Assembly (NCBI GenBank): GCA_048939765.1
Contig: JBHLPF010000001.1
Location: 46,073 to 110,072, forward strand
DNA length: 64,000 nt
From: Promethearchaeota archaeon
GTDB taxonomy: Archaea > Asgardarchaeota > Thorarchaeia > Thorarchaeales > Thorarchaeaceae
Direction of reading: 5' to 3'
Position numbers and translations under genes: made by a program. Positions 2,134 to 46,755 of the stretch are shown here, piece by piece (the first letter of the stretch is position 1; every line of letters begins with the position of its first letter). The notes below the pieces were generated by a model. That model searched no databases. It was not told where the DNA came from and worked only from the letters and a program-made list of their open reading frames with translations.

Positions 2134-2712
2134 TTAAATTGGCTTTGTGAGAACACTTGCACGCATAGCGTTTCCAAAGAGATGCTGAAATGCCTCTAGG
2201 ATGTTGAAGCCATCCTTGGCTATGCTTTTGAACACAGGGACGGCTCGCGGAAGTCTTAGGTGCTGCCGTATTTCGTCTTCTTGAACTGCTCCTGGAAGAT
2301 CCTGCTTGTTGAGGCAGACAACTATTGGCAGGGGTCGCTCCTCCTCCGCCACCAATGCCACCAGCTCGTTCCAACTTGCCTGATTCTCTTGCAACAGGTG
2401 TTCCTGAGAATCGACCATGAAAACGACTCCATCTGCACCTACAAGGACCACTTCTCTAGTTGACCTATAGAAGTCTTGACCAGTTGCTGACCATACATGA
2501 GCGTTGATCTTCCAGCTGTCCCCTAATGCAAATGGAATTGTGCCAAAGTCGCAGAACATAGTCCTACCCACAGTGTTCTCAATGGATGTCAGTTTGTCTG
2601 CATAATCAAGGCTTGAGAAGAGCCATCGTATGGCAGTGGTTTTGCCACTCATTGCAGGGCCAAAGAACACTATTTTGAGACCGACCGTACGAGTACCATA
2701 GTCTATAATCAT
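2134..2712 (-). CDS. Arf-like small GTPase (Ras superfamily; ArfR-type as found in Asgard archaea)
   Basis: 192 aa. G1 GPAMSGKTT, G3 WSATGQD (DxxGQ) and G4 NKQD (the Arf-type NKQD). Last gene of an operon with a roadblock/LC7 protein. Confidence 0.8.
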   Translation of the reverse strand: MIIDYGTRTVGLKIVFFGPAMSGKTTAIRWLFSSLDYADKLTSIENTVGRTMFCDFGTIPFALGDSWKINAHVWSATGQDFYRSTREVVLVGADGVVFMVDSQEHLLQENQASWNELVALVAEEERPLPIVVCLNKQDLPGAVQEDEIRQHLRLPRAVPVFKSIAKDGFNILEAFQHLFGNAMRASVLTKPI

Positions 2713-2727
2713 CCCTTCACTCCCTGA

Positions 2728-3648
2728 TTACGTTCCCCACATACTGTCAACCCACGCACCAAGGCCAGATAACGCACCGGACTTCACGCAGTCAGAAAAG
2801 TCCTCGTGCCATTCTGCAACGATGAATCGAATAAGGTCAGACAAATCGCCGTCTTCCCATCCAATTGCCTCATACAGATTTCTCTCAGTCAGCGCAGTAG
2901 ATGCACCAAGTTCCCTGGCTAGACGGATTCTGGATAATAGAGTAACTGCTCTTCTGGCTGCATGTACATAGTTGCTTATTTCTTCATCAAACACATCATG
3001 CGTCAGTTTCTCAGATTCATCATCAAGCTTCAAGACTGCATTTATGATTCCACTTGATACATTGACGCCACGAAGTGATTTTCTCAGAAGGCGTCTGATT
3101 CTCTCGAGAGATTGACGTTTTCGAGTCAGAATCTTAGTAACTATCTTCTTTTCCACCTCCAAATTGCCGCTACATGGCTCTATGAGGGAGAAGTTCATCG
3201 ATGAAGGAGAGGCCACTCTCAAGATTCCACAATTGTTGGAATGCTGTAGCACTCGATGAATCACCGTTTGCATCATCTCTTCATTCACATGCATTCCTAA
3301 CACATTGGCTCCTATTGGGATTGCAAGAAGCCATCCAGAAAATCTGGTTATTCGTTCTAGAGCCAGTCGGAGGTTTGACGAGAGCCCGCAGATGATGGTT
3401 CTACTGACTTCATAGTTGTGCTTTTCCTCCTCCCAAACTGCAAGAAGCTCGGTTTCGGAGGTGAAATCACGCCAGAACACAAGCTTGTGATGGTGAGGGC
3501 ACAACATAGCAAGGCTTTCAGTGATGTCATCTACTAGTTCAACATCTTGACCAGTTACCAGGATAGGAAGACGGTTCATCACGGAATTCAACAGAAGCGG
3601 AAAATCATCCCCCAAAAGCTCAATCATTCGCATTATAGAATAAGTCAT
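2728..3648 (-). CDS. Hypothetical protein, middle gene of the GTPase/roadblock operon
   Basis: 306-aa ORF. Its stop overlaps the upstream gene (3645..3648), which is typical of translational coupling. No motif recognised. Confidence 0.5.
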   Translation of the reverse strand: MTYSIMRMIELLGDDFPLLLNSVMNRLPILVTGQDVELVDDITESLAMLCPHHHKLVFWRDFTSETELLAVWEEEKHNYEVSRTIICGLSSNLRLALERITRFSGWLLAIPIGANVLGMHVNEEMMQTVIHRVLQHSNNCGILRVASPSSMNFSLIEPCSGNLEVEKKIVTKILTRKRQSLERIRRLLRKSLRGVNVSSGIINAVLKLDDESEKLTHDVFDEEISNYVHAARRAVTLLSRIRLARELGASTALTERNLYEAIGWEDGDLSDLIRFIVAEWHEDFSDCVKSGALSGLGAWVDSMWGT

Positions 3649-4592
3649 GGTTCTCGCCTCGCTAAAACCATTCCATTTTCATTGCCGCCAGCTAGAAGCA
3701 GCTCTCTTAGATCGTCTGGAACTGAAAGGCGCATTGCTTCGGCAGTACTAAGAACACGTTTAATCTCCTCAATGTAGTGCTTGAGCAGAAGCCGCATGAG
3801 GCCAAGTTTCTGACCTCCACGATTTACCCAAAGGCTGAACACTCCGTTTGGCACAGCATAGATGAAGTGCCTTATAGATCCCGCTTCGCAGAGAACAGTC
3901 TGAAGAGAACTATTGCGGAGCGTTCGTACCACGCGTTCTGATGCATCATGTAGAGCAAAGGACATTGCAGCAAGTCTATCATTAGTAAATCCCTCCAGAG
4001 AAACACGAACACCACCACTGAGAGAGAGAAAGACCGATTCGATATCAGGAATGCCATCATGCACCTGCCGCAATAACGCTCTCAGTGCGAGAGCTTGAGA
4101 CCGATCAAGTGATATGATTGACCGTGATGTGGCATAGGAGGTATCTCGTCCTTCAGCCACAGCGAACCCGCCAAGAACACGATGGGTTTCTTCACTACTG
4201 TATGAGCGCAGCGGTGGGAGCCTTCCATCCACATGCTGACGCAGCAAGAATGCAACACGAGATAAACTGTCCTTCATCTCTATGAATAGCGCTGCAAGAT
4301 TAACCCTGGGTGCAGTTGTAACGGTCAAGAAGTAGTCAGGATCATTGGGAAGTGAGGCAAGAAATACTTTGGAGGTTTCGGATTCCATAAGAAGATACTT
4401 GAATTCGCCATGGACAAGACGTGCAACGCCATAGATTGCACATGTCGATGATGCAATCGCGAATACCTCTTCCTTGCTGAACCAGACCCCAGCACTGGCA
4501 ACCGGGAGTCCATCCTTCTGAATTAGGACTACATTTTCAACGCCTGCAATCATCTTTATGGTTTGCAGCGTTTCGTTTAGCTCGTCAGTCAA
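3645..4592 (-). CDS. Roadblock/LC7 (MglB-like) domain protein with three tandem roadblock-like repeats
   Basis: 315 aa. N-terminal LQTIKMIAGVENVVLIQKDGLPVAS matches the Roadblock/LC7 signature. Two further similar segments follow (HRVLGGFAVAEGRDTSY..., SVFLSLSGGVRVSLEG...). First gene of the operon that ends in the Arf-like GTPase. Confidence 0.65.
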   Translation of the reverse strand: MTDELNETLQTIKMIAGVENVVLIQKDGLPVASAGVWFSKEEVFAIASSTCAIYGVARLVHGEFKYLLMESETSKVFLASLPNDPDYFLTVTTAPRVNLAALFIEMKDSLSRVAFLLRQHVDGRLPPLRSYSSEETHRVLGGFAVAEGRDTSYATSRSIISLDRSQALALRALLRQVHDGIPDIESVFLSLSGGVRVSLEGFTNDRLAAMSFALHDASERVVRTLRNSSLQTVLCEAGSIRHFIYAVPNGVFSLWVNRGGQKLGLMRLLLKHYIEEIKRVLSTAEAMRLSVPDDLRELLLAGGNENGMVLARREP

Positions 4593-10321: not shown

Positions 10322-10430
10322 TGGTGGGCCGGGGGCGACTTGAACGCCCGATCTCTTGCATTCTGTGACTTGAGGCCCTAGGTCCTTAGTCGCCCCAAGC
10401 AAGAATCATACCAAGCTAGACTACCGACCC
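10322..10430 (-). tRNA. tRNA-Pro (anticodon GGG) with a roughly 32-nt canonical intron; CCA is encoded
   Basis: Reverse complement reads GGGTCGG-TA-GTCTAGCTTGGTATGAT-T-CTTGC-TTGGGG[intron CGACTAAGGACCTAGGGCCTCAAGTCACAGAA]T-GCAAG-AGATC-GGGCG-TTCAAGT-CGCCC-CCGGCCC-A-CCA. The acceptor stem pairs 7/7 with one G-U. The anticodon stem CTTGC/GCAAG is perfect. The T-loop is GTTCAAGTC. Confidence 0.7.
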
Positions 10431-10575
10431 TTGCAGTCGTTGTCGTAAACCGATGTCAAGATAAACGTTATTGCAAAGTCTATTAGAACACGTGTTCTAA
10501 TAGACTCGAATACATTAGGTCTGAGGTCTACACTTATCTACGGGAATTACACCAGAGAGAGCCTGGGATGCGATA

Positions 10576-11631
10576 ATGGTCACAGACCTGCTCTATCATG
10601 AGGTGTTCACAAAGCATGTGATATCACCAGGTCACCCGGAAAGGCCTGAGAGATTGATTTCTGCCATGAAGCATATCAAGGAAACCGGTCTTCTCGAGGA
10701 GTCCAAAGTCAGGATTGTAGAGGCCATGCCAGCTGATCTGGAATTGGTCTATTCCATTCATGATAAGCAGTACATCGAATTGGTCAGGACTAAGTCCGAG
10801 AGGGGCGGTGGATACTTCACATTGGATACAGCTGTCAATGAATACACCTATGATGCTGCCATAATGGCTGCTGGTGCAGGAGCATTAGCTATGGACAGAA
10901 TCATGCAAGGTGAGTCTGACAATGCCTACGTATTGTGCCGCCCACCAGGACATCATGCAGAATATGATAGAGCCTTTGGATTCTGTTTCATCAACAATAT
11001 CGCGGTCGCAGCAAAACAGCTCCTTCAACAACATGGAATCCAGAGAGTGCTAATTGTTGATTATGATGCTCATCATGGAAATGGAACCCAGAATACGTTT
11101 TACGGTACTAGTCAGGTGCTTTACATAGGGCTCCATCAAGACGGACGAACACTCTTCCCCGGATCTGGATTTCCGGATGAAATCGGTTTGGGGGAAGGAA
11201 GAGGATACAACGTGAATCTTGCGATGTATCCAGGAGCTGGCGACAAGTCCTATGGCATTGCATTTACCGAAATTGTGGAGAAGATTTGTGAGTCATACAG
11301 ACCTGAGTTTGTGCTCGTTTCATGTGGGTTTGATGGGCACTTCAGTGACCCGTTGACCGTCTTAGGTCTGACCACCTCAGGGATGGCAATGATGAACTCA
11401 CGAATAAACTCAATGGCAAAGAAGATTTGTGGAGGGAAGGTCGCATTCTTCATCGAGGGGGGTTATGATCTCGAAATAGTAGGGAAATGCTCGCGCAATA
11501 TAATCGAGGAGCTAAGTGGCTCTGAAGTCACAGCATACACAGACGAACATTCTGAGAGCGAAAATTGCACGCAGTATACAATGGAACTTGTTGAAAGACT
11601 AAAAAAGAACTTGGGTGATACTCACTTCTAG
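10576..11631 (+). CDS. Histone deacetylase superfamily protein (AcuC/HDAC-like deacetylase)
   Basis: 351 aa. CRPPGHHA and DYDAHHGNGTQ zinc-site motifs diagnostic of the arginase/deacetylase fold. Confidence 0.85.
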   Translation: MVTDLLYHEVFTKHVISPGHPERPERLISAMKHIKETGLLEESKVRIVEAMPADLELVYSIHDKQYIELVRTKSERGGGYFTLDTAVNEYTYDAAIMAAGAGALAMDRIMQGESDNAYVLCRPPGHHAEYDRAFGFCFINNIAVAAKQLLQQHGIQRVLIVDYDAHHGNGTQNTFYGTSQVLYIGLHQDGRTLFPGSGFPDEIGLGEGRGYNVNLAMYPGAGDKSYGIAFTEIVEKICESYRPEFVLVSCGFDGHFSDPLTVLGLTTSGMAMMNSRINSMAKKICGGKVAFFIEGGYDLEIVGKCSRNIIEELSGSEVTAYTDEHSESENCTQYTMELVERLKKNLGDTHF

Positions 11632-13904: not shown

Positions 13905-15989
13905 CTAGGTCCCAGAGGATCTAGAAAGTCGTATAGTACCTTCTCCTTTAGGCCTGTATACATCACCAGCTTGTTCGAGCCGTTTTATGACATCTTCGGC
14001 CTTGTCTCGAGGTATACCCTTTATCTCTAATCTCTGTAACAGCTCGACTTCGCTACTTACACCCTCATCCATCATAACTCTGAGTGTGTCTATAATCGCA
14101 ATTCTGATATTTCTCCTACCTGAAGGCTCCTCTGCATATATACGGTCTGCATCAAATTCTCCAGTATCAATGTCGTAGAACACCTTTTCCATTGATGCTT
14201 TCATAAGGTCGACAGCCGCTAACCCGTCCTCTCTGCTGACCTCACGCTTCAGTGCCATTCTTGCTCGAGCTTCTGCAAGACGTACTAGGGACTCCAGCTG
14301 TCGGGCTGTAATCGGTATGGGGGCATCTTCTTCTTGGGCCTTTTTTCGGAGACCTACATAGAAGTCCTGTATTGCTTCTGCGGCCGCGGGGGTCAGTTTA
14401 GGCTCAAACTCACGATGCGCAAATGCAATATACTTCTTCAAGAGCTTCTTCGGGATCGGAGCTTTCTCATCTTTTACCTTCCTCGATTTCCCCTGGTGCA
14501 AGTCTAGAATGAATCCTGCTAGGTCTTTATCGCGCTCCTCTTCTGGAGTGTCAATCATGACCCAGATTAAATCAAATCTGGACAAGATTGTAAAGGGTAG
14601 TTTGATGTTTTCTTGTGGAGTCCATGATATGTTGTATCGGCCAAGGGAAGGATTCGCCGCAGCTAGAATTGAGGTGCGTGCATTCAGTGTCGCAACTATG
14701 CCGGCCTTTGCTATGCTCACAGTATGTTGTTCCATTGCTTCGTGTATTGCTGTTCGATCATTCGGATCCATTTTGTCAAACTCATCTATGCATGCAATTC
14801 CCTTGTCTGCCAGAACCAATGCTCCAGCTTCAAGTGTCATAGCTCCACTGTCAGTGTCATGAACAACAGCTGCTGTCAGACCTGCAGCAGTGGTACCCTT
14901 TCCTGATGTGTATAGGGCTCTGGAGCCAAGATCTGCCACATATTTCAAGATCTGACTTTTTCCTGTCCCAGGATCACCGACCAGTAGAATGTTGGACCGT
15001 CCCCTTAGCCGAATTCCTTCTTCTTCGAATGTCTTTTCAACTCCACCGAATAGAAGAAGCGAGATTGATTCCTTTATGTCGTCATGCCCTTGGATTGCAG
15101 GTGCAATTGATCTGTAAATCTTCTCATGAACATATGGATTCTCAGACAGTTTGAGTATCTCTTCCCTATCTTCGGGAGAAATATCAAGCTCATATTCCTT
15201 CTCTGCAACTTCTACCCCACTGGCATCGATAAACACTCTAAAGGTGGCTAGCTTTCCACCCCTCCTCGAGAAGTCAGGTGCTGTCTGTAGCATTCCTGTC
15301 ACATTGACCATGTCACCAGGTCTCGAGATGTCTACGATGTCACCCTTGAGGACTGCATCGACGGACCGCGGCATTTGTCCTGGAGGAAGCTCCTCAGGTG
15401 ATTCCTGTATTCGAACCTTCTGCCAGTCTATGAACCGTGATTTTCCTTTCGCAAGTAACAATTTCATAGGGGTCTTTTTCCCACAGGTATTGCAAAACGG
15501 GGGTTCAGTGTAGCGACCTTCCTCTTGTTCTTGAGGAGTTTCGTCACCACAGATTCTGCATTTGAATGTGGCACTGACCAATAATGGCTTGACTTCACTT
15601 GCACGCATCATGATGCCCTTGATACGGATTAGCTTCCCGATGTGACGTGCCCGTATGTATCTAAGAGGAACAGTATCGGTATAGTTGATAATACGGACCT
15701 GTAATGCGTCATGTCCAATCGCCTCAACATACTTGGGATCTTCGATTTTGAGGATAGTAACCAGTGCATTGTGGGCATTCTTAAGAAATGACTCAGGATC
15801 TTCTGTAGCGTCTGCCGTGAATTCATTATCAAAGCTGATAAGATCTTCAAAGTCTATGACTAATGAAGTTTCACCGTCAACAGACATCTCTTGTACTCTA
15901 GACCAATAGATTGGTTTGCCATTTTCGTCTTTGAAGGTACGAATGAACTCCTCGAACCTTCTTTCTTCAGTTTCCATTTCTGTTGTCAT
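13905..15989 (-). CDS. mcm: Minichromosome maintenance helicase MCM
   Basis: 694 aa. C4 zinc finger (CRICGDE...CNTCGKK), Walker A GDPGTGKSQIL, Walker B DEFDKM and arginine-finger region. No intein is evident. Confidence 0.95.
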   Translation of the reverse strand: MTTEMETEERRFEEFIRTFKDENGKPIYWSRVQEMSVDGETSLVIDFEDLISFDNEFTADATEDPESFLKNAHNALVTILKIEDPKYVEAIGHDALQVRIINYTDTVPLRYIRARHIGKLIRIKGIMMRASEVKPLLVSATFKCRICGDETPQEQEEGRYTEPPFCNTCGKKTPMKLLLAKGKSRFIDWQKVRIQESPEELPPGQMPRSVDAVLKGDIVDISRPGDMVNVTGMLQTAPDFSRRGGKLATFRVFIDASGVEVAEKEYELDISPEDREEILKLSENPYVHEKIYRSIAPAIQGHDDIKESISLLLFGGVEKTFEEEGIRLRGRSNILLVGDPGTGKSQILKYVADLGSRALYTSGKGTTAAGLTAAVVHDTDSGAMTLEAGALVLADKGIACIDEFDKMDPNDRTAIHEAMEQHTVSIAKAGIVATLNARTSILAAANPSLGRYNISWTPQENIKLPFTILSRFDLIWVMIDTPEEERDKDLAGFILDLHQGKSRKVKDEKAPIPKKLLKKYIAFAHREFEPKLTPAAAEAIQDFYVGLRKKAQEEDAPIPITARQLESLVRLAEARARMALKREVSREDGLAAVDLMKASMEKVFYDIDTGEFDADRIYAEEPSGRRNIRIAIIDTLRVMMDEGVSSEVELLQRLEIKGIPRDKAEDVIKRLEQAGDVYRPKGEGTIRLSRSSGT

Positions 15990-16127
15990 GATTAGTCAGA
16001 ACACTCCAGATGTAATCCTAATGATCTCACATGACTCTAACACTTTGTCTGTAGGGGTCAGATATTAAAACCCGTTCTCGTTAGTTGTGAGTTTGCTTTT
16101 TAACTCTGTCAGAGCTTTCGGAATTCT

Positions 16128-16730
16128 TCAGACAATGGTCTTCTCTCTCACCATTTCGCGCCAAGCAGAAAGCAGAGAGTAGAGTTCATCTGCAAGCCAC
16201 CTCTCCTCTCGCGACATCCTCTTACGGTTATCCTGACTCACACCAGACTCTGGTTTTGCAGCACGTATTATTTTGGACAAACGTGTTTCAGTTAGAATTC
16301 TGAGCATTGTGCCCATCTTCTTAATATCGGCATAACGACGCGGTTCCATTGAAGTCTTGTCGCTTTGTAGCTGGCTCATCTTTCGGATGAGAGCAGAATA
16401 AAGCAGTTTGGGCCGTTCATTCTTTTTATCATACAGACTATGCAAGTTGGGTAGCTTTCTCTCTTCATTATACAGATTTTGAAATTTCCGAAAGGAATCA
16501 TAATCATCATCGGTATGCATATCAACAAAATCGTGTGCAATGAGCTTCTCGATTGCCCAATTGGAAAGTTCCGTTGTATCTTCGGCTTTGAAAGGACCTA
16601 GTTTCTCTCCTCCAATCGTAATCTCTGGTACATCCTCACGAAAGATACACATACGGGTTTCGTTTAGAAACTGCATTGCAAATCGGTCTCTTACAATTTC
16701 GGAGTCGTGTTGAGAACTCATTGTACACAC
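16128..16730 (-). CDS. Probable GINS subunit (Gins51/Gins15-like)
   Basis: 200 aa. The position directly between mcm and rfc is the usual location of archaeal gins genes. The size fits. No decisive motif is visible. Confidence 0.35.
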   Translation of the reverse strand: MCTMSSQHDSEIVRDRFAMQFLNETRMCIFREDVPEITIGGEKLGPFKAEDTTELSNWAIEKLIAHDFVDMHTDDDYDSFRKFQNLYNEERKLPNLHSLYDKKNERPKLLYSALIRKMSQLQSDKTSMEPRRYADIKKMGTMLRILTETRLSKIIRAAKPESGVSQDNRKRMSREERWLADELYSLLSAWREMVREKTIV

Positions 16731-16917
16731 AATTATCGATTGATTGGCGTACCATAAGAACTTGTTCTAGAGTGCGAATTGCGGTGCTGCTTTTAGTCTA
16801 ACATGAGTATTATCTAATTGGAGTTGAGCTTCTATTTCCAATTGGCTGATGCTTCCGGAGAAGCTTTTAAGAACAACAGAAGATTGTCACCGCAGCCTAT
16901 GACTGGATGGGAACCAT

Positions 16918-17874
16918 ATGGATTTAGACCTCTGGACAGAAAAATACCGTCCCCCCACACTCGGGGGAATTATTGGACAGGAATCGATTATTGAGAGTCT
17001 AACCAAATTCGTGGAAAACAGGAATGTACCACATTGTCTGTTCAGCGGACCTCCAGGTACAAGCAAGACCACCGCTGCAATGGCGATGGCAAGAGATCTC
17101 TTTGACGACACTTTTGATCGTAACTTCATGGAACTAAATGCAAGTGATGAGAGAGGCATTGATGTCGTCAGGAATCAGATAAAGAACTTCGCCCGGACCA
17201 TGCCGGCGGGAGATGCTCCCTTCAAGATTCTGGTCCTAGATGAGGCGGACCATCTCACTGCTGATGCTCAACATGCATTAAGACGGACGATGGAATCGTA
17301 TGCAGGCTCATGCAGAATGATATTGATATGTAACTATTCGAGCAGAATAATTCCACCAATTCAATCTAGATGTGCGATGTTCAGATTTGCCCGATTAAGT
17401 GATGACTCGATGGCTGAGAGAATCAAGTTCATTGCTAAAAAGGAGAAAGTTTCTGTCAATGTAAGTGGGACCAAAGCAATACTCTATCTCGCAGAGGGAG
17501 ACATGCGGGCTGCTATCAACCTTCTTCAGGCATCTGCATCTGCAGGAGAAAAAGTGGATGATACAATAGTCTACTCGATAGCTGGAAGAGCAAACCCCAA
17601 AGCGATTAAGGAGATGCTAGACTCCGCTAATGTGAACTATGAGGACTCTCTGGAGAAACTTAGAGTACTCATCTATCAGCAAGGAGTGTCGCCAGTAGAT
17701 TTGGCAAGGCAACTGCATAGAGAAGTGCTAAAGATGGATATGGCTGAGAATCAAAAGATGTTGATTCTTGAGAGGGCTGCAGAAGTTGAATTTCGAATAG
17801 GAGAAGGAGCAAGTGGAGAGGTCCAACTGAGTGCACTATTGGCGCATATAGGATTGGAACGGGGTAAATCATGA
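16918..17874 (+). CDS. rfcS: Replication factor C small subunit
   Basis: 318 aa. RFC box II-III, Walker A GPPGTSKTT, DEAD-type Walker B (LVLDEADHLT) and SRC motif (SRCAMFRF). Confidence 0.95.
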   Translation: MDLDLWTEKYRPPTLGGIIGQESIIESLTKFVENRNVPHCLFSGPPGTSKTTAAMAMARDLFDDTFDRNFMELNASDERGIDVVRNQIKNFARTMPAGDAPFKILVLDEADHLTADAQHALRRTMESYAGSCRMILICNYSSRIIPPIQSRCAMFRFARLSDDSMAERIKFIAKKEKVSVNVSGTKAILYLAEGDMRAAINLLQASASAGEKVDDTIVYSIAGRANPKAIKEMLDSANVNYEDSLEKLRVLIYQQGVSPVDLARQLHREVLKMDMAENQKMLILERAAEVEFRIGEGASGEVQLSALLAHIGLERGKS

Positions 17875-19088
17875 AGAGCAAAAACCTGCCTTGGCCAGAA
17901 CTCCACCGTCCCACGAGTCTTAAGCAGATGGCTGGTAATATCGATGCAATAGGAGAACTGAGAAGGTGGATTCAGTCTTGGATTGATGGGACCCCAGGCA
18001 AGAGAGCTGCATTGTTGATTGGCCCTCCTGGTGTGGGAAAGACAGCTTCTGTTGGCGCACTATCTCATGACTACGACCTAGAACTGGTAGAGTTCAATTC
18101 GAGCGATAAACGAAACAAGGGAAGTATAGAGAACCAGGTGTGGAAAGCGGCGACGCAACAGACACTGGATGGTAGACTTCGTCTTCTCCTCTTAGACGAG
18201 GTAGATGGACTCTCCGGGACAAGCGACCGAGGAGGGGTGGGTGCAATTCTGAAAATCGTCGAAGACACAGTACATCCCATTATAATGACTGCAAATGATC
18301 CAAACAGCCCACGCCTGAAGGATTTGTTTAAGGTCTGCAAGGTGTTCATGTTCGACTCACTTGAAGCAAGTGACATGGTAGCTGTCATCAGAAAGATTGC
18401 AGCGGCACATGATTCTGTGTTCTCTGATGATGTGCTAGAAGGAATTGTTGATAGGGCTGGAGGCGACCTTCGAGCTGCAATAGCAGATCTTGAAACACTC
18501 TCTGTAAGCGGACGCACATCTGATATGGGACTGCCATCACGCGATGTGCGTCGTGAAGTCAGGGAAACCTTTGGACGACTGTTTATGACTACAGACCCAG
18601 AAACAGCCAAACGGGTCGTTTCAGAATTGGACATGGATTACAATCAACTGCTTCTATGGCTTGAAGAGAATGTACATCTTCATCTTACAGCTCCGGAAGA
18701 ACTGGACCAGGGTTTTGAATTTCTCTCGCTTGCTGATTTATCAATTGGACGAATTTGGAGGCGGCAAAACTGGAAATTGCTGGCCTATGTGTATGACTTT
18801 CTAGCAATTGGAATTTCCATGAGCAGAAAGGTGACACCATATAGGAAAGTTGAGTATTCTCAGCCAGCTTGGCCAATGTTGATTTTCCGGGGGAATAGAA
18901 AATACGACAAGGAAGCAGACCTTTTCCGAAAACTCTCTGAAATCGCCTCAATTTCCACAAGGAGAACGGCACCAGCTTATAGGAATGCAATAATGGAGAT
19001 AGTCAGAAGAAATCCTCGATTGAAAGGAGTCTTCTCGGAGTGGCTAGAAGTCAAGAAGAGCTTCTTTGATGACAGAAGGCATTGCTGA
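17871..19088 (+). CDS. rfcL: Replication factor C large subunit
   Basis: 405 aa. Walker A GPPGVGKTA and Walker B LLLDEVDGL. Overlaps the rfcS stop by 4 nt. Confidence 0.9.
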   Translation: MKSKNLPWPELHRPTSLKQMAGNIDAIGELRRWIQSWIDGTPGKRAALLIGPPGVGKTASVGALSHDYDLELVEFNSSDKRNKGSIENQVWKAATQQTLDGRLRLLLLDEVDGLSGTSDRGGVGAILKIVEDTVHPIIMTANDPNSPRLKDLFKVCKVFMFDSLEASDMVAVIRKIAAAHDSVFSDDVLEGIVDRAGGDLRAAIADLETLSVSGRTSDMGLPSRDVRREVRETFGRLFMTTDPETAKRVVSELDMDYNQLLLWLEENVHLHLTAPEELDQGFEFLSLADLSIGRIWRRQNWKLLAYVYDFLAIGISMSRKVTPYRKVEYSQPAWPMLIFRGNRKYDKEADLFRKLSEIASISTRRTAPAYRNAIMEIVRRNPRLKGVFSEWLEVKKSFFDDRRHC

Positions 19089-19887
19089 GTGCACTTAGTG
19101 TACGTCTGGATCTCTTGAGATAATTCAAATGAACTCTCAACTGCTTTCGGACTCTTGAAATTGCATGCTTACTTGTGGTCATGCGAATTGGTATTGCTGT
19201 TTCCATGAGAACCAGGCATTCTGATGGAGCAGGCTCAATACCTCCTGGAATTGAGCTATGACCATTGAGATAATCTGAGAATGTCTGAATGTCCATGGCG
19301 CCAGTTCCAATCTGTTCAAGCAGCGATACTGTCTTTCTGATTAGCTTCCAAAGGAAGTTAGTGCCAAAGATGTCTAGAATAATGCCGTCATCCGACTTCA
19401 GAAGGCTTGCATTGATAATCGTGGCCCTAGTTGGTCTATCACCATTTGGTTTCGAAAGATGAGAAAAGTCGCGGGTTCCAGATAATAGCTGTATAGCAGT
19501 TCTCATCGTTTGTAGTTTCACATCGGGTGGATTCGTATCGAAATAGTATCTATAATGTTTCATAAGCACGTCATATCGAGGATTGAAATTGGGTGGAGCT
19601 ATGGCATAGGCCCATAATGCAATATCAGGTGGAAGGTATCTGTTTACTCTGTCTATGTCAAGCTTCTTTTCCCCGCTTATCATTACGATTTGACCTATAC
19701 TATGCACTCCTCGATCAGTACGGCCTGAGAATTGTACCGTCTGAGTAGTGTAGCTGGTTTCGCTCTTGGAGTCCCAATGATTCAACGCACTGATGAGTTC
19801 ACCCTGTATAGTTTTGAGATTCGGCTGAAATTGGGACCCATGATAGGCATCCCCAAGATAGAAGAGACGTGCGATATAGGAGTGCAA
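19051..19887 (-). CDS. truA: tRNA pseudouridine(38-40) synthase TruA/Pus1-like
   Basis: 278 aa. Catalytic RTDRGVHS motif (TruA family RTD.GVH) and conserved Tyr-rich N-terminus. Confidence 0.8.
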   Translation of the reverse strand: MHSYIARLFYLGDAYHGSQFQPNLKTIQGELISALNHWDSKSETSYTTQTVQFSGRTDRGVHSIGQIVMISGEKKLDIDRVNRYLPPDIALWAYAIAPPNFNPRYDVLMKHYRYYFDTNPPDVKLQTMRTAIQLLSGTRDFSHLSKPNGDRPTRATIINASLLKSDDGIILDIFGTNFLWKLIRKTVSLLEQIGTGAMDIQTFSDYLNGHSSIPGGIEPAPSECLVLMETAIPIRMTTSKHAISRVRKQLRVHLNYLKRSRRTLSALSNAFCHQRSSS

Positions 19888-19903
19888 TTAGCAGACCTCT
19901 TAG

Positions 19904-20197
19904 TCATGACTGCCAAAGTCCGAATAGGTTCCGTAACGCTCGTGCCCGGTGGTCCTCTATCCGATAGCGGTAGATTTTGATTCTCCCAAACATCTTTTCC
20001 TCGACTAGTCCTGATTTGATAAGTACCTCAAGATGCGATTTGGTCGAGCTATGATTCAAGGAAACTCTCCGGCAAAGTTCGGATATATTCAGCTCACTGG
20101 AAGTGGCTAGTTCTTTTATTATCTTGATTCTCCCTCTCGAAGAGAATAGTTCCTCTATTGGCACTCGAAATCTGTCATCAGTATCAGTAGAAATCAT
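19904..20197 (-). CDS. ArsR-type winged-helix transcriptional regulator
   Basis: 97 aa. An HTH-like segment ELNISELCRRVSLNHSSTKSHLEVLIKSGLVEE resembles the ArsR/SmtB recognition helix and wing. Confidence 0.5.
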   Translation of the reverse strand: MISTDTDDRFRVPIEELFSSRGRIKIIKELATSSELNISELCRRVSLNHSSTKSHLEVLIKSGLVEEKMFGRIKIYRYRIEDHRARALRNLFGLWQS

Positions 20198-20208
20198 GAA
20201 ACCCCCCT

Positions 20209-21402
20209 TCAGGTGAGTAAGTCGAGTAGATGTTGTTCCAACATATCAGCTGGTACTTCAGAGAGACCTATCAAGGTTGTCTGACCTCTCTGGCCAGCAC
20301 CAGAACGTTTTGTGTCCAAAAGCCCATGCGCATTTAGATCCTGTACCCATTCCCAGATTTGAGTGTGTGCCCTTGGATCTTCGCCGTACTCCTCGCATAT
20401 TGGACGGTACATCTCTTCGAGCTCACCCATTGTGATATATGCGCCTCGATTCATCCTGAGCTGTCTTGCAGCTGCCAGAAGAAGAAGCATATTCTGTCGA
20501 GGGAGAGTTGCGAACACCTCCTTCCTCAACTCGGGATGTATGTCTGCCTTGGCCTTACGGGCAAAATCAGGAATCACCTTTCGGGAGCCTGTACTATCAG
20601 CCTGCTTCCCTGCGCGCCACAGGAGTTCGATTGCATAACGGGCGTCCCCCCATTCTGAGGCAATGTCGCAGATAATCTGCAGTGTTTCATCCATAACTGC
20701 ATCCTTCTCGAATGCCATGTCTACTCGCTCCCTTAGAATATCATATAGTGCATCAGCTGCATATTGGTCAAAACGAAGTATGTTTCTTTGAAGTGTGCTC
20801 AATGTGCTTTGATCCAAGATACTCTCATCAAGGGGTATCTTTCTCCCCACTCCGATTACAGACAGACGCTGAGGAGCATTCAACCGGTCATCCATCAGCC
20901 TAGTCAAATCATAGAGAATGTCAGCGCCTCGTTGTCTAATGAAATAGTCGAGCTCATCAAGTATCAGTAGAAGGTATCTGTCTTCTTCATCAAGTACTTC
21001 GACAACCATCTGAAGAATTTCTTCAGGTGAATGGCCTCGTCGAGGAAACCTTGGTTTAAACTCCCTCAATATCCGCAGATACACAAGATAGGTGCTCTTG
21101 CTCACTCTACAGTTTATGTGCAGTTTGTGCAGTTGAATGCCACGTCGCGTAGCGGCCTTAACCATTTGATCCGCAAAACGCTTAGTCACAGCTGTCTTTC
21201 CAGTGCCTACTGGGCCCTCGATAATGAACTTCTGACTCGCGCGACCGGGCGAAGCAATCAGTGTCTTGAAACTCTGGGCCAGCTTCCTCAACTCAGGCTC
21301 TCTATGCGGGAGAGTTTCTGGAACATAGTCGATGGATAGCAATTGCTCCGACTTGAATACACTCCGTCGACTCAGTTCGTCTTCTACATAGTCATGCGTC
21401 AT
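20209..21402 (-). CDS. cdc6: Orc1/Cdc6 replication initiator
   Basis: 397 aa. AAA+ Walker A GPVGTGKTAV, Walker B LILDELD and a C-terminal winged-helix region. Confidence 0.92.
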   Translation of the reverse strand: MTHDYVEDELSRRSVFKSEQLLSIDYVPETLPHREPELRKLAQSFKTLIASPGRASQKFIIEGPVGTGKTAVTKRFADQMVKAATRRGIQLHKLHINCRVSKSTYLVYLRILREFKPRFPRRGHSPEEILQMVVEVLDEEDRYLLLILDELDYFIRQRGADILYDLTRLMDDRLNAPQRLSVIGVGRKIPLDESILDQSTLSTLQRNILRFDQYAADALYDILRERVDMAFEKDAVMDETLQIICDIASEWGDARYAIELLWRAGKQADSTGSRKVIPDFARKAKADIHPELRKEVFATLPRQNMLLLLAAARQLRMNRGAYITMGELEEMYRPICEEYGEDPRAHTQIWEWVQDLNAHGLLDTKRSGAGQRGQTTLIGLSEVPADMLEQHLLDLLT

Positions 21403-21624
21403 GAGTCATCCCGGTCCGAAATAGAAACAAATCAGCAACTTAAAAGAGTTGTGTGAATTGTTCGATTAAATGTATGCGAGGAGTGGGGCTAGCCGAAAGT
21501 AATAGTGGCGAGCTCGTTACTCAAGATCCATATCATCGTCGCTCTGGACTCATTGGGGTCATGGCAGTCATCACTCGCCGCTCACAACTTGGTCTACTTG
21601 TCCTTAAGTCTGACGAAAAGAATG

Positions 21625-34547: not shown

Positions 34548-35351
34548 TTAGAGTCGTATCTTTGTGCATCGGGGTGTCTTTCCAGAAAGCAAAGCGGACA
34601 ATCGATTGGGCACTCCAAGATTGAATATTGCTATGTCTATTTCAAGACCAGCTAGTGTGAAGATATCGCCAAGTTTCTTTTCCATTCCACCCGTGACGTC
34701 GGTAGCTGAGGATGGACCGGCTCTGTCAAGAATCGTGTTTATGTTTGTTGCATCGACTACCTCTATATGAGCCGCCTTTGGATTGATCCGAGGATTTTCC
34801 TCAAGAACTCCATCCACGTCTGTTCCAATGTAGAGAGAAGTGGCTTTTAGATTCCTAGCAAGATAGACGGCAATTGTATCACCACTGAGAATAGAAGCAC
34901 CAAGAGATTCGTCGAAGCAGACATCTCCATGTGTGATGACAGTAAGGCCAGAATGAATTACCCTCTCAATGAATGATGTCTGAAAGCTGACGAGTTCTTT
35001 GTTATCTAGGCTGGCTATAAGAAAGGGTGATATTACAACTCCACGAATGCCTGCCTCATTCAGACTTTGTTCGACTGCAGTTGAAAGGACTGACATATTA
35101 TGACGTATTGATGGGATTCCCCGAAGTAATTGTTCTGATGAAGTTAGTGGATCACCAAAGCCATGTCTGTGAGCCGCTTGATGTCCATGTGCACCGCCAC
35201 CTAGAATAATAATCAGCGGCGCGATGGAGGTCTTTAATTCTTGAGCAATTCGGGATAGATTCTCCTGATTGACTGTGGGAGGAGACATACCCTTGTGAGT
35301 TATGACGGATCCTCCCAGCTTTACTATTGTAAGGCTATTCACATCTAACAC
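34548..35351 (-). CDS. ipk: Amino-acid-kinase-family enzyme, probably isopentenyl phosphate kinase
   Basis: 267 aa. VKLGGSVIT N-terminal motif and IILGGGAHGH glycine-rich loop, typical of IPK of the archaeal mevalonate pathway. FomA-type kinases are an alternative. Confidence 0.55.
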   Translation of the reverse strand: MLDVNSLTIVKLGGSVITHKGMSPPTVNQENLSRIAQELKTSIAPLIIILGGGAHGHQAAHRHGFGDPLTSSEQLLRGIPSIRHNMSVLSTAVEQSLNEAGIRGVVISPFLIASLDNKELVSFQTSFIERVIHSGLTVITHGDVCFDESLGASILSGDTIAVYLARNLKATSLYIGTDVDGVLEENPRINPKAAHIEVVDATNINTILDRAGPSSATDVTGGMEKKLGDIFTLAGLEIDIAIFNLGVPNRLSALLSGKTPRCTKIRL

Positions 35352-35496
35352 TTGTTTCGTTTGGTCGTTTTCATACTTATGGACATTGTTATCCAGATTG
35401 CAAGAACACGTGTTCTAGGTCACTACACAAGACAACCTTTTTATCCGAATAGAATTCCGTTGCGTCATCCACCTCGAAAACGAGGCTGAACCAATA

Positions 35497-35808
35497 ATGA
35501 CCCAGAAAGCACGGATTCGACTGTCAAGCACGAGTACAGAACACCTAGATGGTGTCTGTAATCAGATTAGACGTATAACTCGCAAGACAGGAGTCCGAAT
35601 GTCTGGTCCAATTCCATTACCTACACGAAGAATGGTCATTCCTACACGCAAGACCCCATGCGGACAAGGATCTGAGTCATGGGACAAGTGGGAGATGAGA
35701 ATTCACAAACGTTTGATTGACATCGACGCGGATGAACGTGCGATTCGTCAAATCATGCGAGTACGAATCCCTGACTCTGTCTATATTGAAATCGAACTCA
35801 CCGGTTAG
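35497..35808 (+). CDS. rps10: 30S ribosomal protein uS10
   Basis: 103 aa. Conserved uS10 core (KARIRLSS...GPIPLPT...IHKRLIDI). The gene is isolated and not next to tuf. Confidence 0.9.
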
Positions 35809-40316: not shown

Positions 40317-40461
40317 CATATTCACCTCATTAACAGGTTTTCACAGTGAGTATCTGTGAATGGCGCCTTTTTTGTGAATCATTCTCATGAAAGAGCCTTT
40401 AAATCGCCTTAATCAGCGGAAGGACAGCCCATAAACCCTCTTAAGCCTGTGAATGAAGCCA

Positions 40462-40482
40462 CCCCTTGGTTTCCAGTGGAAC
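40462..40482 (-). promoter_or_regulatory. Origin recognition box (ORB) copy, inverted orientation: CCCCTTGGTTTCCAGTGGAAC
   Basis: Its reverse complement GTTCCACTGGAAACCAAGGGG is a near-identical 21-mer to the 44665 element. Confidence 0.55.
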
Positions 40483-40787
40483 AGGACAAGAAGAGATATG
40501 AAATACTAATCGACTCATTCACAAAGCACATATTCTAGTGAACAGCAGAAGGTTTGAACATTTCCCTTCTTTTCCAAAAATAAGGTTTCATAACGCTTAT
40601 TTTGTCTAAAATTGACCGCACAAGCTGCCAGCACATCGATATCAACGTGGACGTGTTCTGAATAGGTATAGGCGCATTATGTTGCCGTTATCTCCGTATT
40701 GCTAATTCACATACTCACACTTATTTGGTCACAGTCAGTTATCGGGTGTGAATATTGAAATGGGTATGAGTTACTCGGATACAGGTC

Positions 40788-44087: not shown

Positions 44088-44319
44088 TCGGGAGCTCCTG
44101 CCTGGCTGCAGACATTGCCGCGTGGAACAATTCCTATGCATTAACCTTTCCATTTCGGACCAATTTTGTATTACTAAGACTGAAAATGTGAACATGTGTT
44201 CCAATTTTATGACATTTTTCCTCTATTTGTATGATTGTCGGCGCGCTCGCGAAACCAATGCTCGACGTGTTTCATTTACTAAGGAGCTCTATGGATATAC
44301 CTACACATGGAAGACAAAG

Positions 44320-44493
44320 ATGGGGATTAGACAGAAAAGAAAGCCAGGTCTTATTGATACATCAGGGGCATTAGCAGTGGCTGACTCTGCAATATTGGTG
44401 CCTGGAGAATATAGATCTCTCTTCGATTCATTGTTCAGATCCTATTCTGACATATTGAAGGCTAGGGTTTTTGAAGTTCTAAGAGAGATTTGA
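44320..44493 (+). CDS. Possible 57-aa small ORF inside the origin-like intergenic region
   Basis: MGIRQKRKPGLIDTSGALAVADSAILVPGEYRSLFDSLFRSYSDILKARVFEVLREI. Its stop is 2 nt before the GAACACGTGTTC palindrome. An AGGAG lies 40 nt upstream. There is no homology evidence and it may be non-coding. Confidence 0.2.
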   Translation: MGIRQKRKPGLIDTSGALAVADSAILVPGEYRSLFDSLFRSYSDILKARVFEVLREI

Positions 44494-44522
44494 TTAGAAC
44501 ACGTGTTCCAATACCCAAGACA

Positions 44523-44543
44523 CCCCTTGATTTCCATTAGAAA
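44523..44543 (-). promoter_or_regulatory. Origin recognition box (ORB), degenerate, inverted orientation (CCCCTTGATTTCCATTAGAAA)
   Basis: G-tract complement CCCC plus TTCCAnnnGAAA dyad. It matches the inverted form of the ORB 120 bp downstream. Confidence 0.5.
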
Positions 44544-44664
44544 TCTTTGAAAGTATCGATACTTATCGAAAAGGGTAAATATAAATACCCGTTTGTGGAG
44601 CTCGCATTCATCTCCATTTTATCATTATTATTCATTCACCGCTCTTGATCCCCCCATTTTATCA

Positions 44665-44686
44665 TTTCCAGTGGAAATGAAGGGGT
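44665..44686 (+). promoter_or_regulatory. Origin recognition box (ORB): TTTCCAGTGGAAATGAAGGGGT
   Basis: Matches the archaeal ORB consensus: TCCAGTGGAAA dyad, short spacer, GGGGT tract. Confidence 0.6.
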
Positions 44687-44862
44687 GTCAGACCATAATA
44701 TCTGGATATAGGGTATATTAATATGTTAGAACACGTGTTCTATGGTATTATGCGTATTACAAAATCAAGGTTTGGGAGCATTTCCAGTACCACAAGGTTG
44801 ATAGACTGATTTACCTCCGGACGGCTTGTGCTTGTCGTTTATGGAGATCGGAGGCTAGGTGA

Positions 44863-46755
44863 TTGACCAAACCCAAAGAGCTACTAGAAGATAAAGTAGG
44901 AAAGAAAGTACTTCTTCTTGCCAATGAAGCTATTGCTCGAGGTGTTCTTGAGGCTGGCGTACGACTTGCTGCACTCTATCCTGGAACTCCAAGCAGTGAG
45001 ATTGGGAATAATCTCACAATCATGGCGCCTCATATTCCAAACTTCTACTTTGAGTTCAGCGCCAATGAGAAGGTCGCCCTGGAAGTTGCGGGTGCGGCTG
45101 CGGTTGCAGGTGTAAGATCGATGATGGTCTGTAAGGGACCAGGTCTCAATGTAGCAGCTGACCCATTCTTTTCACTGGCCTATGTAGGTATACGAGGCGG
45201 TATGGTCATCGTAGTGGCTGACGACCCTAGTATGTGGAGCTCACAGAATGAGAACGACAGTAGATACTATGCTTTGATGGGCAATATGCCTATGGTTGAG
45301 CCAGCTGATCCCGCTGAAGCCAAATCGATGGTTCTCAAGGCATACGAGATATCTGAAGAACTAGAGCTTCCTGTACTCCTTAGGACGACAACGCGTGTCA
45401 ATCATACTAGGTCTCCAGTGGAGTTTGGAGAAATAAGAAAACGTCCTGCAACTGTGGAATTTGAGAAGGAACCATTTCGATTTGTACCAATTCCAGCAGT
45501 CGCTAGAAAACGGCATCCCGTACTTCTTGAAACTATGAAGAAAGCAATGAAGGTCTCTGAATCAACTCCCTTTAACTTCATCCAGGGTGAGGGAGATCTT
45601 GGGATAATCACAAGTGGAGTAGCATACAACTATGTCCTTGAGGCACTTTCGTCAATGGAACTCTCAGCGGAAGTTTTCAAACTTGGAATGACCCATCCAG
45701 TTCCAGAGGCGAAAATTGGTGAATTCCTCGAGAAACACAGAAGAGTTGTGATAGTTGAAGAGCTGGAGCCGTTCCTAGAAACCCACGCCAGAAGAATTGC
45801 TCAGCTCAATAACATCCCTGTTGAGATCCTTGGAAAAGAACAAGGATACTTCTCACGAACTTTTGAGTATAGCCCGCGAATTGTCATCACAGCTCTTTCT
45901 AAGATTATTAATCGTGATACAAGTATTAACTGGGAAGAGATAGACAAGAAGACCGCGGAGCTTCCTGAATTACCTCCGAGACCTCCTCTCCTCTGTGCTG
46001 GATGTCCTCATCGTGCAACCTACTATGCCATACGAACTGCCACACGAGGCAAGGCGATCTATCCTTCTGACATCGGATGTTACACACTCAGTATAGCACC
46101 ACCCCTTGAAACTGCTGACATTCTCTTTGACATGGGATCATCAATCACAACAGCTTGTGGAATTGCCCGTGTGACCGGTCAAGATGTTGTGGCAACGATT
46201 GGTGACAGTACATTCTTTGCATCGGGACTACCCGGTATTGCCAATGCTGTATACAATAGCCATCCAATCAGTCTAGTGGTTCTCGATAACAGAACTACGG
46301 CAATGACCGGGCACCAGCCACATCCTGGTACTGGAGTCACTGGAATGCAAAAACAAGTCGAACCGCTGAATATCGCAGAGATCTGTAAAGGACTTGGGGT
46401 GAAGTACGTCAAGACCATACAACCATTCGATTCCATGGCAACCATTGTTGCGGAAATCAGGGAAATGGTGACATGGGTCAGAGAGAACCAGGCGCCAGCA
46501 GTGATGGTGTCAATAGAACCATGCGCTCTTCTTACGGCTGCAGATAGACAACGAAGCGGCGAATTTCCCCCGAAGTACTATGTTGATGAGGAGGTATGTA
46601 ATGCATGCAAACGATGCCTGAACCGCCTATCCTGTCCAGCTATGTATCAAGATCCTGAAACCGAAAAGGCAGTGATTGACGAGACCCTGTGCAATCTATG
46701 TGGCACTTGTGTTTCTGTATGTCCACAAGGCGCAATCAAACAGGAGGATGCATAG
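44863..46755 (+). CDS. iorA: Indolepyruvate:ferredoxin oxidoreductase alpha subunit
   Basis: 630 aa. TPP-binding and pyrimidine-binding domains. C-terminal two [4Fe-4S] motifs CNACKRCLNRLSCP and CNLCGTCVSVCP. Confidence 0.85.
   Translation: MTKPKELLEDKVGKKVLLLANEAIARGVLEAGVRLAALYPGTPSSEIGNNLTIMAPHIPNFYFEFSANEKVALEVAGAAAVAGVRSMMVCKGPGLNVAADPFFSLAYVGIRGGMVIVVADDPSMWSSQNENDSRYYALMGNMPMVEPADPAEAKSMVLKAYEISEELELPVLLRTTTRVNHTRSPVEFGEIRKRPATVEFEKEPFRFVPIPAVARKRHPVLLETMKKAMKVSESTPFNFIQGEGDLGIITSGVAYNYVLEALSSMELSAEVFKLGMTHPVPEAKIGEFLEKHRRVVIVEELEPFLETHARRIAQLNNIPVEILGKEQGYFSRTFEYSPRIVITALSKIINRDTSINWEEIDKKTAELPELPPRPPLLCAGCPHRATYYAIRTATRGKAIYPSDIGCYTLSIAPPLETADILFDMGSSITTACGIARVTGQDVVATIGDSTFFASGLPGIANAVYNSHPISLVVLDNRTTAMTGHQPHPGTGVTGMQKQVEPLNIAEICKGLGVKYVKTIQPFDSMATIVAEIREMVTWVRENQAPAVMVSIEPCALLTAADRQRSGEFPPKYYVDEEVCNACKRCLNRLSCPAMYQDPETEKAVIDETLCNLCGTCVSVCPQGAIKQEDA

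Follow-up and report, generated by a model that had tools for sequence, protein, structure and literature searches.

In yeast, general regulatory factors such as Abf1 and Rap1 act at promoters as well as at autonomously replicating sequence (ARS) elements, and Cbf1 acts at CACGTG. In archaea, the sites of Orc1-1 and Orc1-3 are among the elements of replication origins. Origin proteins can double as transcription regulators, a precedent being Sulfolobus Orc1-2, reported as a damage regulator (PMC9738581). The '12-2-12' operators of the ArsR/SmtB family contain TGAACA-NN-TGTTCA, for example AATACCTGAACA-GA-TGTTCAAGTATT (PMC8790569). The subject here is a short palindrome with a CACGTG core that recurs in a 64-kb stretch of a Thorarchaeia genome (contig JBHLPF010000001.1, positions 46,073 to 110,072; this whole stretch is called the window) and was flagged in a first-pass annotation as a candidate operator. 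The best explanation, and a fairly probable one, is that the palindrome is the operator of a putative homodimeric global regulator found throughout Thorarchaeia, and that the same element also marks the replication origin, oriC.

The 12-mer GAACACGTGTTC occurs perfectly at 10486-10497, 35404-35415, 44497-44508 and 44729-44740, which confirms the four perfect copies of the first-pass annotation, and a variant with a CpG-to-TpG change, GAACATGTGTTC, lies at 44190-44201. All five copies are intergenic. The longest is the 28-bp perfect palindrome GTCTATTAGAACACGTGTTCTAATAGAC, midway between the divergent promoters of tRNA-Pro and the HDAC gene; this copy, the one between the divergent ipk-like and rps10 genes (AGAACACGTGTTCT) and the one at 44727-44742 (TAGAACACGTGTTCTA) stand as they were described. 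Two others exist at corrected coordinates: the copy given as 44495-44508, TTAGAACACGTGTTCC, spans 44494-44509, and the degenerate copy given as 44189-44204 runs from 44190 to 44202 in its longer form. A half-site had been noted near 40650 and is present at 40651-40659 as ACGTGTTCT, but the left half has three mismatches and there is hence no full site. Relatives have no full site at that position, and its membership in the motif is doubtful.

This recurrence is far above chance, as had been claimed. For a fixed 12-mer the expectation is about 0.004 occurrences per 64 kb, and GAACACGTGTTC is the sole 12-mer that the window contains at least four times. In 30 block shuffles no 12-mer reached four copies. 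When up to two mismatches are allowed, there are nine matches against an expectation of 2.2, and none of 100 shuffles reached nine.

The distribution among genomes is largely restricted to one class. The consensus TTRGAACACGTGTTCYAA is made of two half-sites of 8-9 bp that share a GAACA-CG-TGTTC core, and this 18-mer was scanned over one genome per species (185,579 species, 596 Gb), a collection in which about 35 matches are expected at random by our own arithmetic. At least 116 loci carry it. Among the 116 matches listed, 107 come from Thorarchaeota or from unclassified Asgard or archaeal metagenome-assembled genomes (MAGs): 79 are labelled Thorarchaeota and 28 only archaeon, Promethearchaeota or Hermodarchaeota, with several of these 28 showing the Thorarchaeota-type origin module described below. 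The other nine belong to unrelated bacteria, Nitrosopumilaceae or Bathyarchaeota. In the Nitrosopumilaceae loci (L036, L053 and L069) the 18-mer sits inside an open reading frame (ORF) of 328 amino acids, apparently at one orthologous position, and is most likely conserved coding sequence that is separate from the Thorarchaeota element.

Because at least 11 separate contigs of a single MAG, CSMAG_407, carry the site, the number of copies per genome is at least 11, and it is probably in the tens. In the complete genome CP070658.1, sites at about 0.60 and 1.80 Mb are 1.2 Mb apart and far from the origin. One-mismatch copies were also found (L035, L043, L056, L057, L078, L079, L111, L125, L129 and window position 44190), and nearly every one is a C-to-T transition in the central CpG that turns CACGTG into CATGTG or CACATG. 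These variants could be a selected weak form of the site or the footprint of cytosine methylation and deamination.

The placement of the element resembles that of an operator. In the 107 Thorarchaeota-type loci (about 730 kb, 84% coding), 108 of 124 perfect cores fall outside crude ORFs (binomial P about 4e-68), and the 16 that fall inside are mostly close to over-extended 5' ends. The same 18-mer in unrelated genomes served as a control, and six of its nine occurrences are inside ORFs. Scatter through coding DNA at the random rate, which the first-pass annotation had named as an outcome that would refute it, is thus not what is found. Information content is at most 0.16 bit beyond ±9 bp. Only this drop outside ±9 bp is an independent result, because inside that limit the 12-mer core was fixed by selection and the positions at ±7-9 by the scan pattern. 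The information ends at ±9 bp, and the element is therefore a discrete palindrome of 16-18 bp, not the end of a repeat family.

Among 109 classifiable intergenic sites, 29 are in divergent, 68 in tandem and 12 in convergent settings, and 97 lie upstream of at least one gene. Measured from the site centre, the start codon is most often 50-100 bp away, and the best TATA-like 8-mer, where a good one is present, 15-40 or 50-65 bp away. In the two divergent promoter pairs of the window, the site is found by eye about 32-40 bp from a TATA-like box on either side (about 32-34 bp at the ipk/rps10 site) and at roughly -60 to -65 from each presumed start.

Orthologous intergenic regions keep the site while their flanks diverge. 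The clearest case is the tRNA-Pro/HDAC divergent promoter, where an alignment of nine genomes has a mean column identity of 50% and only two invariant blocks, the tRNA TATA box and TTnGAACACGTGTTCnAA, separated by a variable 21-53 bp. Conservation of this site is limited to its inner 18 bp, and the 28-bp extension is lineage-specific. In close relatives, with 88-91% intergenic identity, the core is kept at the ipk/rps10 and origin sites; the former is retained in L004-L013, with CACGTG changed to CATGTG in L010. In divergent genomes the same gene carries a site in nine cases for HDAC, six for a ZIP zinc transporter, 11 for an orphan gene of 129 amino acids, four for a membrane protein and three each for CofE-like and HdrA-like genes. 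Persistence of the site with diverged flanks was also seen at the ZIP, CofE, HdrA-like and origin loci.

The sampled targets fall into about 67 families, most of them metabolic. Only PolX, Topo VI-B and the small subunit of RFC are related to DNA. The others include SHMT, thioredoxin, a flavodiiron protein, an M20 peptidase, MetRS, a PHO4 transporter, thiolase, enoyl-CoA hydratase, SurE and methyltransferases. Such heterogeneity suggests a global rather than a pathway-specific factor.

The tight association with a pair of origin recognition boxes (ORBs) that had been noted in the window is real and class-wide. The ORB pair is conserved across Thorarchaeota, and the order iorA, site, ORB, ORB, site, small gene is found in 15 of 15 origin-type loci, even with IorA identity down to 76% and small-protein identity down to 59%; in four of the 15, the regular expression used for ORBs caught just one member of the core pair. 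Three of the five window copies are in the 772-bp gap that runs from a saccharopine-dehydrogenase-like gene to iorA. A third copy beyond the small gene is present in 12 of the 15 loci, with the central-CpG C-to-T change in ten of the 12 and a perfect core in two (L072 and L075). It is absent at up to one mismatch from L083 and L094, and the L042 locus ends before that position. In the other genomes the spacing from ORB start to ORB start is constant at 141-147 bp, and the offset from site to ORB varies from 26 to 98 bp. Across all sites, 43 of 128 have an ORB-like element within 400 bp, and the motif is genuinely associated with Orc1-type sites. The 119-bp stretch between the ORBs is presumably the duplex-unwinding element. 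The presumed oriC adjoins iorA and the small orphan gene, in a module shared by 15 genomes, and in the window it is 23 kb from orc1/cdc6, not beside the initiator gene.

Because the sites are numerous, nearly all intergenic and promoter-proximal, the palindrome is most likely the operator of a global transcription regulator. A putative homodimeric, sequence-specific protein would recognize TTRGAACACGTGTTCYAA throughout Thorarchaeia. The symmetry is two-fold and perfect over 16-18 bp, as suits a homodimer and the dimeric regulator that the first-pass annotation had proposed. The site would serve as an operator or upstream site; it usually precedes the core promoter and is often halfway between two divergent ones. 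The regulator may activate where the site is upstream of the B recognition element (BRE) and TATA box, and at sites that overlap the start region, such as the one at the small origin gene, it could act as a repressor. Because the ORB pair and the small gene are enclosed by three copies in a class-wide module, the same protein may also be a fixed component of oriC chromatin.

The leading candidate for the binder is a sensor-less ArsR/SmtB-type winged-helix protein that would be co-transcribed with orc1/cdc6, a tentative assignment that is rather unlikely to be right. It leads because the operator core matches, the helix-turn-helix (HTH) and wing are invariant in 29 orthologues, and the gene is coupled to orc1. 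The protein has matches to ArsR/SmtB members in the PDB, including HlyU and CzrA, and the alignment of its 29 orthologues, as we read it, contains no metal-ligand (alpha3N or alpha5) pattern. The stop and start codons of orc1 and arsR overlap in two divergent Thorarchaeota genomes (L134/L135 and L136), where the overlap sits in a conserved orc1-arsR-truA-RFC-MCM cluster. The same stop-start overlap is found on a short contig (L137) whose upstream gene has no annotation. A bolder proposal, and one less probable again, is that this protein, co-translated with Orc1/Cdc6, binds the palindromes and thereby marks both flanks of oriC and tens of promoters. If true, a single factor in Thorarchaeia would link the expression of the initiator and the definition of the origin to a transcription programme across the genome.

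Several points weigh against reading the palindrome as the operator of a global regulator. The targets are heterogeneous (metabolism, transport, translation and some DNA transactions) and, because the downstream genes are functionally mixed, no regulon theme favours a particular signal. Twelve sites are between convergent genes. The distance from site to TATA box varies from about 16 to at least 60 bp, and because of this variation activation and repression cannot be told apart from placement. The oriC sites could do no more than control iorA and the small gene. The motif itself was used to find the loci, which were taken as 8-kb blocks, with copy numbers that are lower bounds, and the Thorarchaeota are uncultured. 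Two further results also count against the ArsR-type candidate. Upstream of orc1, the intergenic DNA of the window and of L134-L136 contains no site at up to two mismatches; a single two-mismatch match in L134/L135 falls just within the annotated orc1 ORF. Autoregulation of orc1-arsR was rejected on this basis. No HTH family recurs beside the sites in a Pfam search of about 64 site-adjacent proteins, 20 small ORFs among them, where the HTH-type matches were one weak PCI/HTH_6 and one distant MazE/AbrB. The idea of an autoregulated transcription-factor gene beside the sites was rejected accordingly.

Other explanations give the same facts a different weight. One puts the origin first: the site would belong to a factor associated with Orc1, or to a paralogue of Orc1/Cdc6, with a role in delimiting or assisting oriC, and promoter use would be secondary, as with Sulfolobus Orc1-2. 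The sites do bracket the ORB pair in all 15 origin loci, 26-98 bp from an ORB, and the loci in at least 14 genomes that pair the motif with a single ORB-like element at 133-146 bp (class B, described below), the ORB-like elements within 400 bp of 43 of 128 sites, the coupling of the ArsR-type gene to orc1 and the few targets that act on DNA (PolX, Topo VI-B and the RFC small subunit) all fit such a role. Yet about two thirds of the sites stand in ordinary metabolic-gene promoters with no ORB nearby, the spacing from site to ORB is not fixed, and the site sequence is unrelated to ORB or mini-ORB. An Orc1 monomer with its winged helix would also have no obvious need for a two-fold symmetric 18-mer, and an origin-first role is judged unlikely. 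A narrow stress regulon, with the site as an ArsR/SmtB operator responsive to metal (zinc) or as an SOS box like that of LexA, is a good deal less probable still. The targets found are overwhelmingly neither metal nor damage genes (rps10, MetRS, thiolase, SHMT, CofE and IorA, for example); most sites are upstream of the promoter and not over it, the orc1-linked ArsR-type protein is without the alpha3N/alpha5 metal-ligand pattern, the window shows no gene for LexA (S24 peptidase), and neither radA nor uvr is among the sampled targets. In its favour, the core equals the inner part of the SmtB/ArsR 12-2-12 repeats and the 12-mer fits the Gram-positive LexA box GAAC-N4-GTTC and is listed in a review of the Staphylococcus aureus SOS response. 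ZIP zinc transporter genes carry the site in six genomes, HDAC and the M20 peptidase are zinc enzymes, and PolX is among the targets.

It is very improbable that the palindrome is a parS-like centromere or chromosome-organizing site, at which a partition or condensation protein would load on an origin-enriched CACGTG-core palindrome. parS sites are often inside genes, and the sites here avoid coding DNA and are tied to promoters. They are dispersed over at least 11 contigs of CSMAG_407 and occur far from the origin in CP070658.1, the bases of their outer half-sites differ from those of parS, and no ParB-type protein was seen in the window. The idea is raised by bacterial parS (tGTTNCACGTGAAACa), which is likewise palindromic over 16 bp around CACGTG and clusters near oriC (PMC7022226), and by the presence of all five window copies no more than 34 kb from the ORB pair. 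The remaining explanations, namely the end of a miniature inverted-repeat transposable element (MITE), an RNA hairpin or terminator, a restriction-modification site, or chance, have next to no probability and were refuted by flank information, exclusion from ORFs, the shuffles and the promoter alignment. The 28-bp site could form a hairpin, but a loopless palindrome of 12-18 bp gives at best a weak stem of 6-7 bp, and by eye no T-run follows the window sites. The flanks hold no information beyond ±9 bp and the 28-bp extension is not conserved, contrary to the MITE or dispersed repeat that the first-pass annotation had raised against itself. CACGTG is a type II restriction site, but it is not depleted in the window (11 observed, 12.8 expected), and restriction-site avoidance was rejected since the hexamer is at its expected frequency. 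Chance is excluded by the statistics of both the window and the genome scan. The site is also kept out of coding DNA.

The neighbours of the sites are listed in Table 1. The small gene between the first two origin copies encodes a basic, strongly conserved protein with 171 homologues, and every named one is from Thorarchaeota or Promethearchaeota (Asgard). Among 1.84 billion proteins there are only 14 clusters of it at 50% identity. The protein has no sequence match in Pfam, NCBIfam or the PDB, no Pfam domain was found among its homologues, and it carries the motif YLYLYDC..AR.TNARRV.FTKELYGY. A first AF2 model was poor (predicted local distance difference test, pLDDT, of 64), and a second, with a pLDDT of 91, has a ferredoxin-like fold. 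A Foldseek search with the model gave nothing significant and no more than generic ferredoxin-like neighbours, the best by geometry being Cas2 5h1o (template-modelling score, TM, 0.51). As a candidate binder the protein was downgraded, the predicted ferredoxin-like fold not being typical of sequence-specific binding. Its start codon follows closely on the variant site, and transcription of the gene may begin within that site.

Loci here called class B, found in at least 14 genomes but not in the window, combine the motif with a strong TATA box and a single ORB-like element. They lie upstream of the orphan gene of 129 amino acids, the motif is at a fixed 133-146 bp from the ORB-like element, and the element is conserved in sequence. 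Besides the example in Table 1, equivalents are L024, L068, L071, L081, L106, L108, L120, L122, L130 and L132. Class B may represent a second origin or an Orc1-controlled promoter. The leader (L032 4780-5020) has no Rfam match, and RNAalifold gave it no covariation support (term +0.33). Within the window, a single ORB-like element is found at 40461-40482, GTTCCACTGGAAACCAAGGGGTGG on the minus strand, in a 470-bp gap between two genes of unassigned function.

The tRNA gene beside the first site was overlooked by ARAGORN and by the whole-window Rfam search and was found only by searching a sub-window. By eye it is a tRNA-Pro with an intron after the anticodon loop. No known RNA was found in Rfam at the sites themselves. 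The orc1/cdc6 gene belongs to a conserved replication cluster at 13905-21402, with MCM, a gene for 200 amino acids with no assigned function, the small and large RFC subunits, truA and the ArsR-type winged-helix gene. A conserved non-coding block, GGCGAGCTCGTTACTCAAGATCCATATCATCGTC...CATTGGGGTCATGGCAGTCATCACTCGCC, lies between a tRNA-like sequence and orc1 at 21480-21600 in the window and at about 2590-2720 in L134 and L136. It is kept in divergent Thorarchaeota; a small RNA and an element that regulates orc1 are both possible readings. Farther away, at 2134-4592 on the minus strand, an Arf/Ras/Roc-type small GTPase gene is followed by two genes, one with a faint Roadblock/LC7 match, in a typical Asgard 'eukaryotic signature' cluster. 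Relatives of the window, which matches contig JBHLOH010000001.1 of GCA_048940745.1, are recorded as MAGs of Thorarchaeota/Promethearchaeota.

Table 1. Palindrome copies, origin elements and neighbouring genes (window coordinates, except for the class B example)
Feature	Position	Strand	Description
Site 1	10478-10505	none	28-bp perfect palindrome GTCTATTAGAACACGTGTTCTAATAGAC; conserved core TTAGAACACGTGTTCTAA; 12-mer at 10486-10497
Site 2	35403-35416	none	AGAACACGTGTTCT; between divergent ipk-like gene and rps10
Site 3	44190-44201	none	variant copy GAACATGTGTTC; 8 bp 5' of the start codon of the small origin-adjacent gene
Site 4	44494-44511	none	TTAGAACACGTGTTCCAA; begins right after the stop codon of the small gene, ends 8 bp short of left ORB
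Site 5	44726-44743	none	TTAGAACACGTGTTCTAT; 37 bp past right ORB, upstream of iorA
Half-site	40651-40659	none	ACGTGTTCT; about 170 bp from the single ORB at 40461-40482
Left ORB	44519-44544	-	GACACCCCTTGATTTCCATTAGAAAT; inverted repeat, 26 nt, 88% complementary
Inter-ORB stretch	44545-44663	none	119 bp; two copies of CCATTTTATCATT
Right ORB	44664-44689	+	ATTTCCAGTGGAAATGAAGGGGTGTC
Small orphan gene	44209-44493	+	basic protein of 94 amino acids; between sites 3 and 4
IorA-type gene (iorA)	44863-46755
tRNA	10325-10430	-	Rfam 45.5 bits on sub-window; 106 nt, longer than usual
HDAC gene	10576-11631		Hist_deacetyl, 6e-91
Amino-acid-kinase-family gene (ipk-like)	34548-35351	-
rps10	35497-35808		Ribosomal_S10
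ArsR/SmtB-type winged-helix gene	19904-20197	-	97 amino acids; HTH_5 at 3e-8; 11-bp gap downstream of orc1/cdc6
orc1/cdc6 initiator gene	20209-21402	-	AAA_22, Cdc6_lid, WHD_Cdc6; 23 kb from ORB pair
Class B example	L032 4818-5002		motif, about 55 bp, TATA box ATAGATATATTTATAAG, conserved CTGGCCGGGAGGCC box, ORB-like CTCCACTGGAAgccaAGGGG in leader

The palindrome is a real class-wide cis-element without prior description in the literature searched, in agreement with the statement in the first-pass annotation that it is not a recognized archaeal operator. A search for Thorarchaeota with CACGTG returned nothing, searches on Asgard origins and promoters returned no description, and the exact 12-mer was found only in primer lists and one review of S. 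aureus LexA. To our knowledge, Thorarchaeota lack both a described regulon for any sequence-specific regulator and a defined replication origin; the literature searches found neither. The 18-mer could be used as bait to isolate a global DNA-binding regulator, the first from this uncultured class of Asgard archaea, and the element supplies a defined set of target promoters. With the site-ORB-ORB-site signature beside iorA and the orphan gene, oriC can be located precisely in MAGs of Thorarchaeota. Should one protein act both at the promoters and at the origin, transcription-factor-assisted origin definition becomes testable outside eukaryotes.

Set beside the described systems, the element is like ArsR/SmtB operators (those of SmtB, AztR/AzuR and CzrA) in its half-site and spacing, which here read AGAACA-CG-TGTTCT. 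Those operators are read by a winged-helix homodimer, and an ArsR-fold protein is encoded in the window; HlyU, one of its relatives in the PDB, is a sensor-less activator of the same family. The differences are considerable. Only the inner 16-18 bp are conserved here, and a genome has at least 11 and probably tens of sites, as opposed to one or two beside the regulator gene. Most sites are upstream of the promoter and TATA box instead of over the start site. The targets include no metal-resistance operon, with ZIP transporters (six loci) as the sole link to metals, and there are neither metal-ligand motifs in the protein nor an autoregulatory site upstream of orc1-arsR.

The LexA (Cheo) box CGAACRNRYGTTYC is matched in its core, where GAACACGTGTTC satisfies GAAC-N4-GTTC, with ACGT as RNRY. 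Its flanking C/G positions are R/Y here, the placement is not that of a repressor site over a promoter, the targets do not make up an SOS regulon, and the window shows no LexA gene. With parS the element shares a 16-bp, CACGTG-centred palindrome and copies beside oriC, and it differs in its outer half-site and in having copies that are dispersed, intergenic and promoter-bound. Archaea are, as far as we know, without a canonical ParB. In the case of ORB and mini-ORB elements, the likeness is one of position, at the origin and beside the ORBs. The site is two-fold symmetric and unrelated to the TCCAnTGGAAA...GGGG consensus, and most copies are far from any ORB.

The sites of the yeast general regulatory factors differ in that the conserved element here is 16-18 bp and not a hexamer. 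The CACGTG core matches the E-box of Cbf1 and Pho4, with no homology implied; bHLH (basic helix-loop-helix) or Abf1-type proteins are not known to us from archaea, and no search for them was made here. What the two have in common is the arrangement, in which the site of one factor appears in many unrelated promoters and also beside the initiator-binding element of origins. If the ArsR-type protein does bind the palindromes at both oriC flanks and at tens of promoters, the logic of a general regulatory factor, as with Abf1 and Rap1, would be present in close archaeal relatives of eukaryotes.

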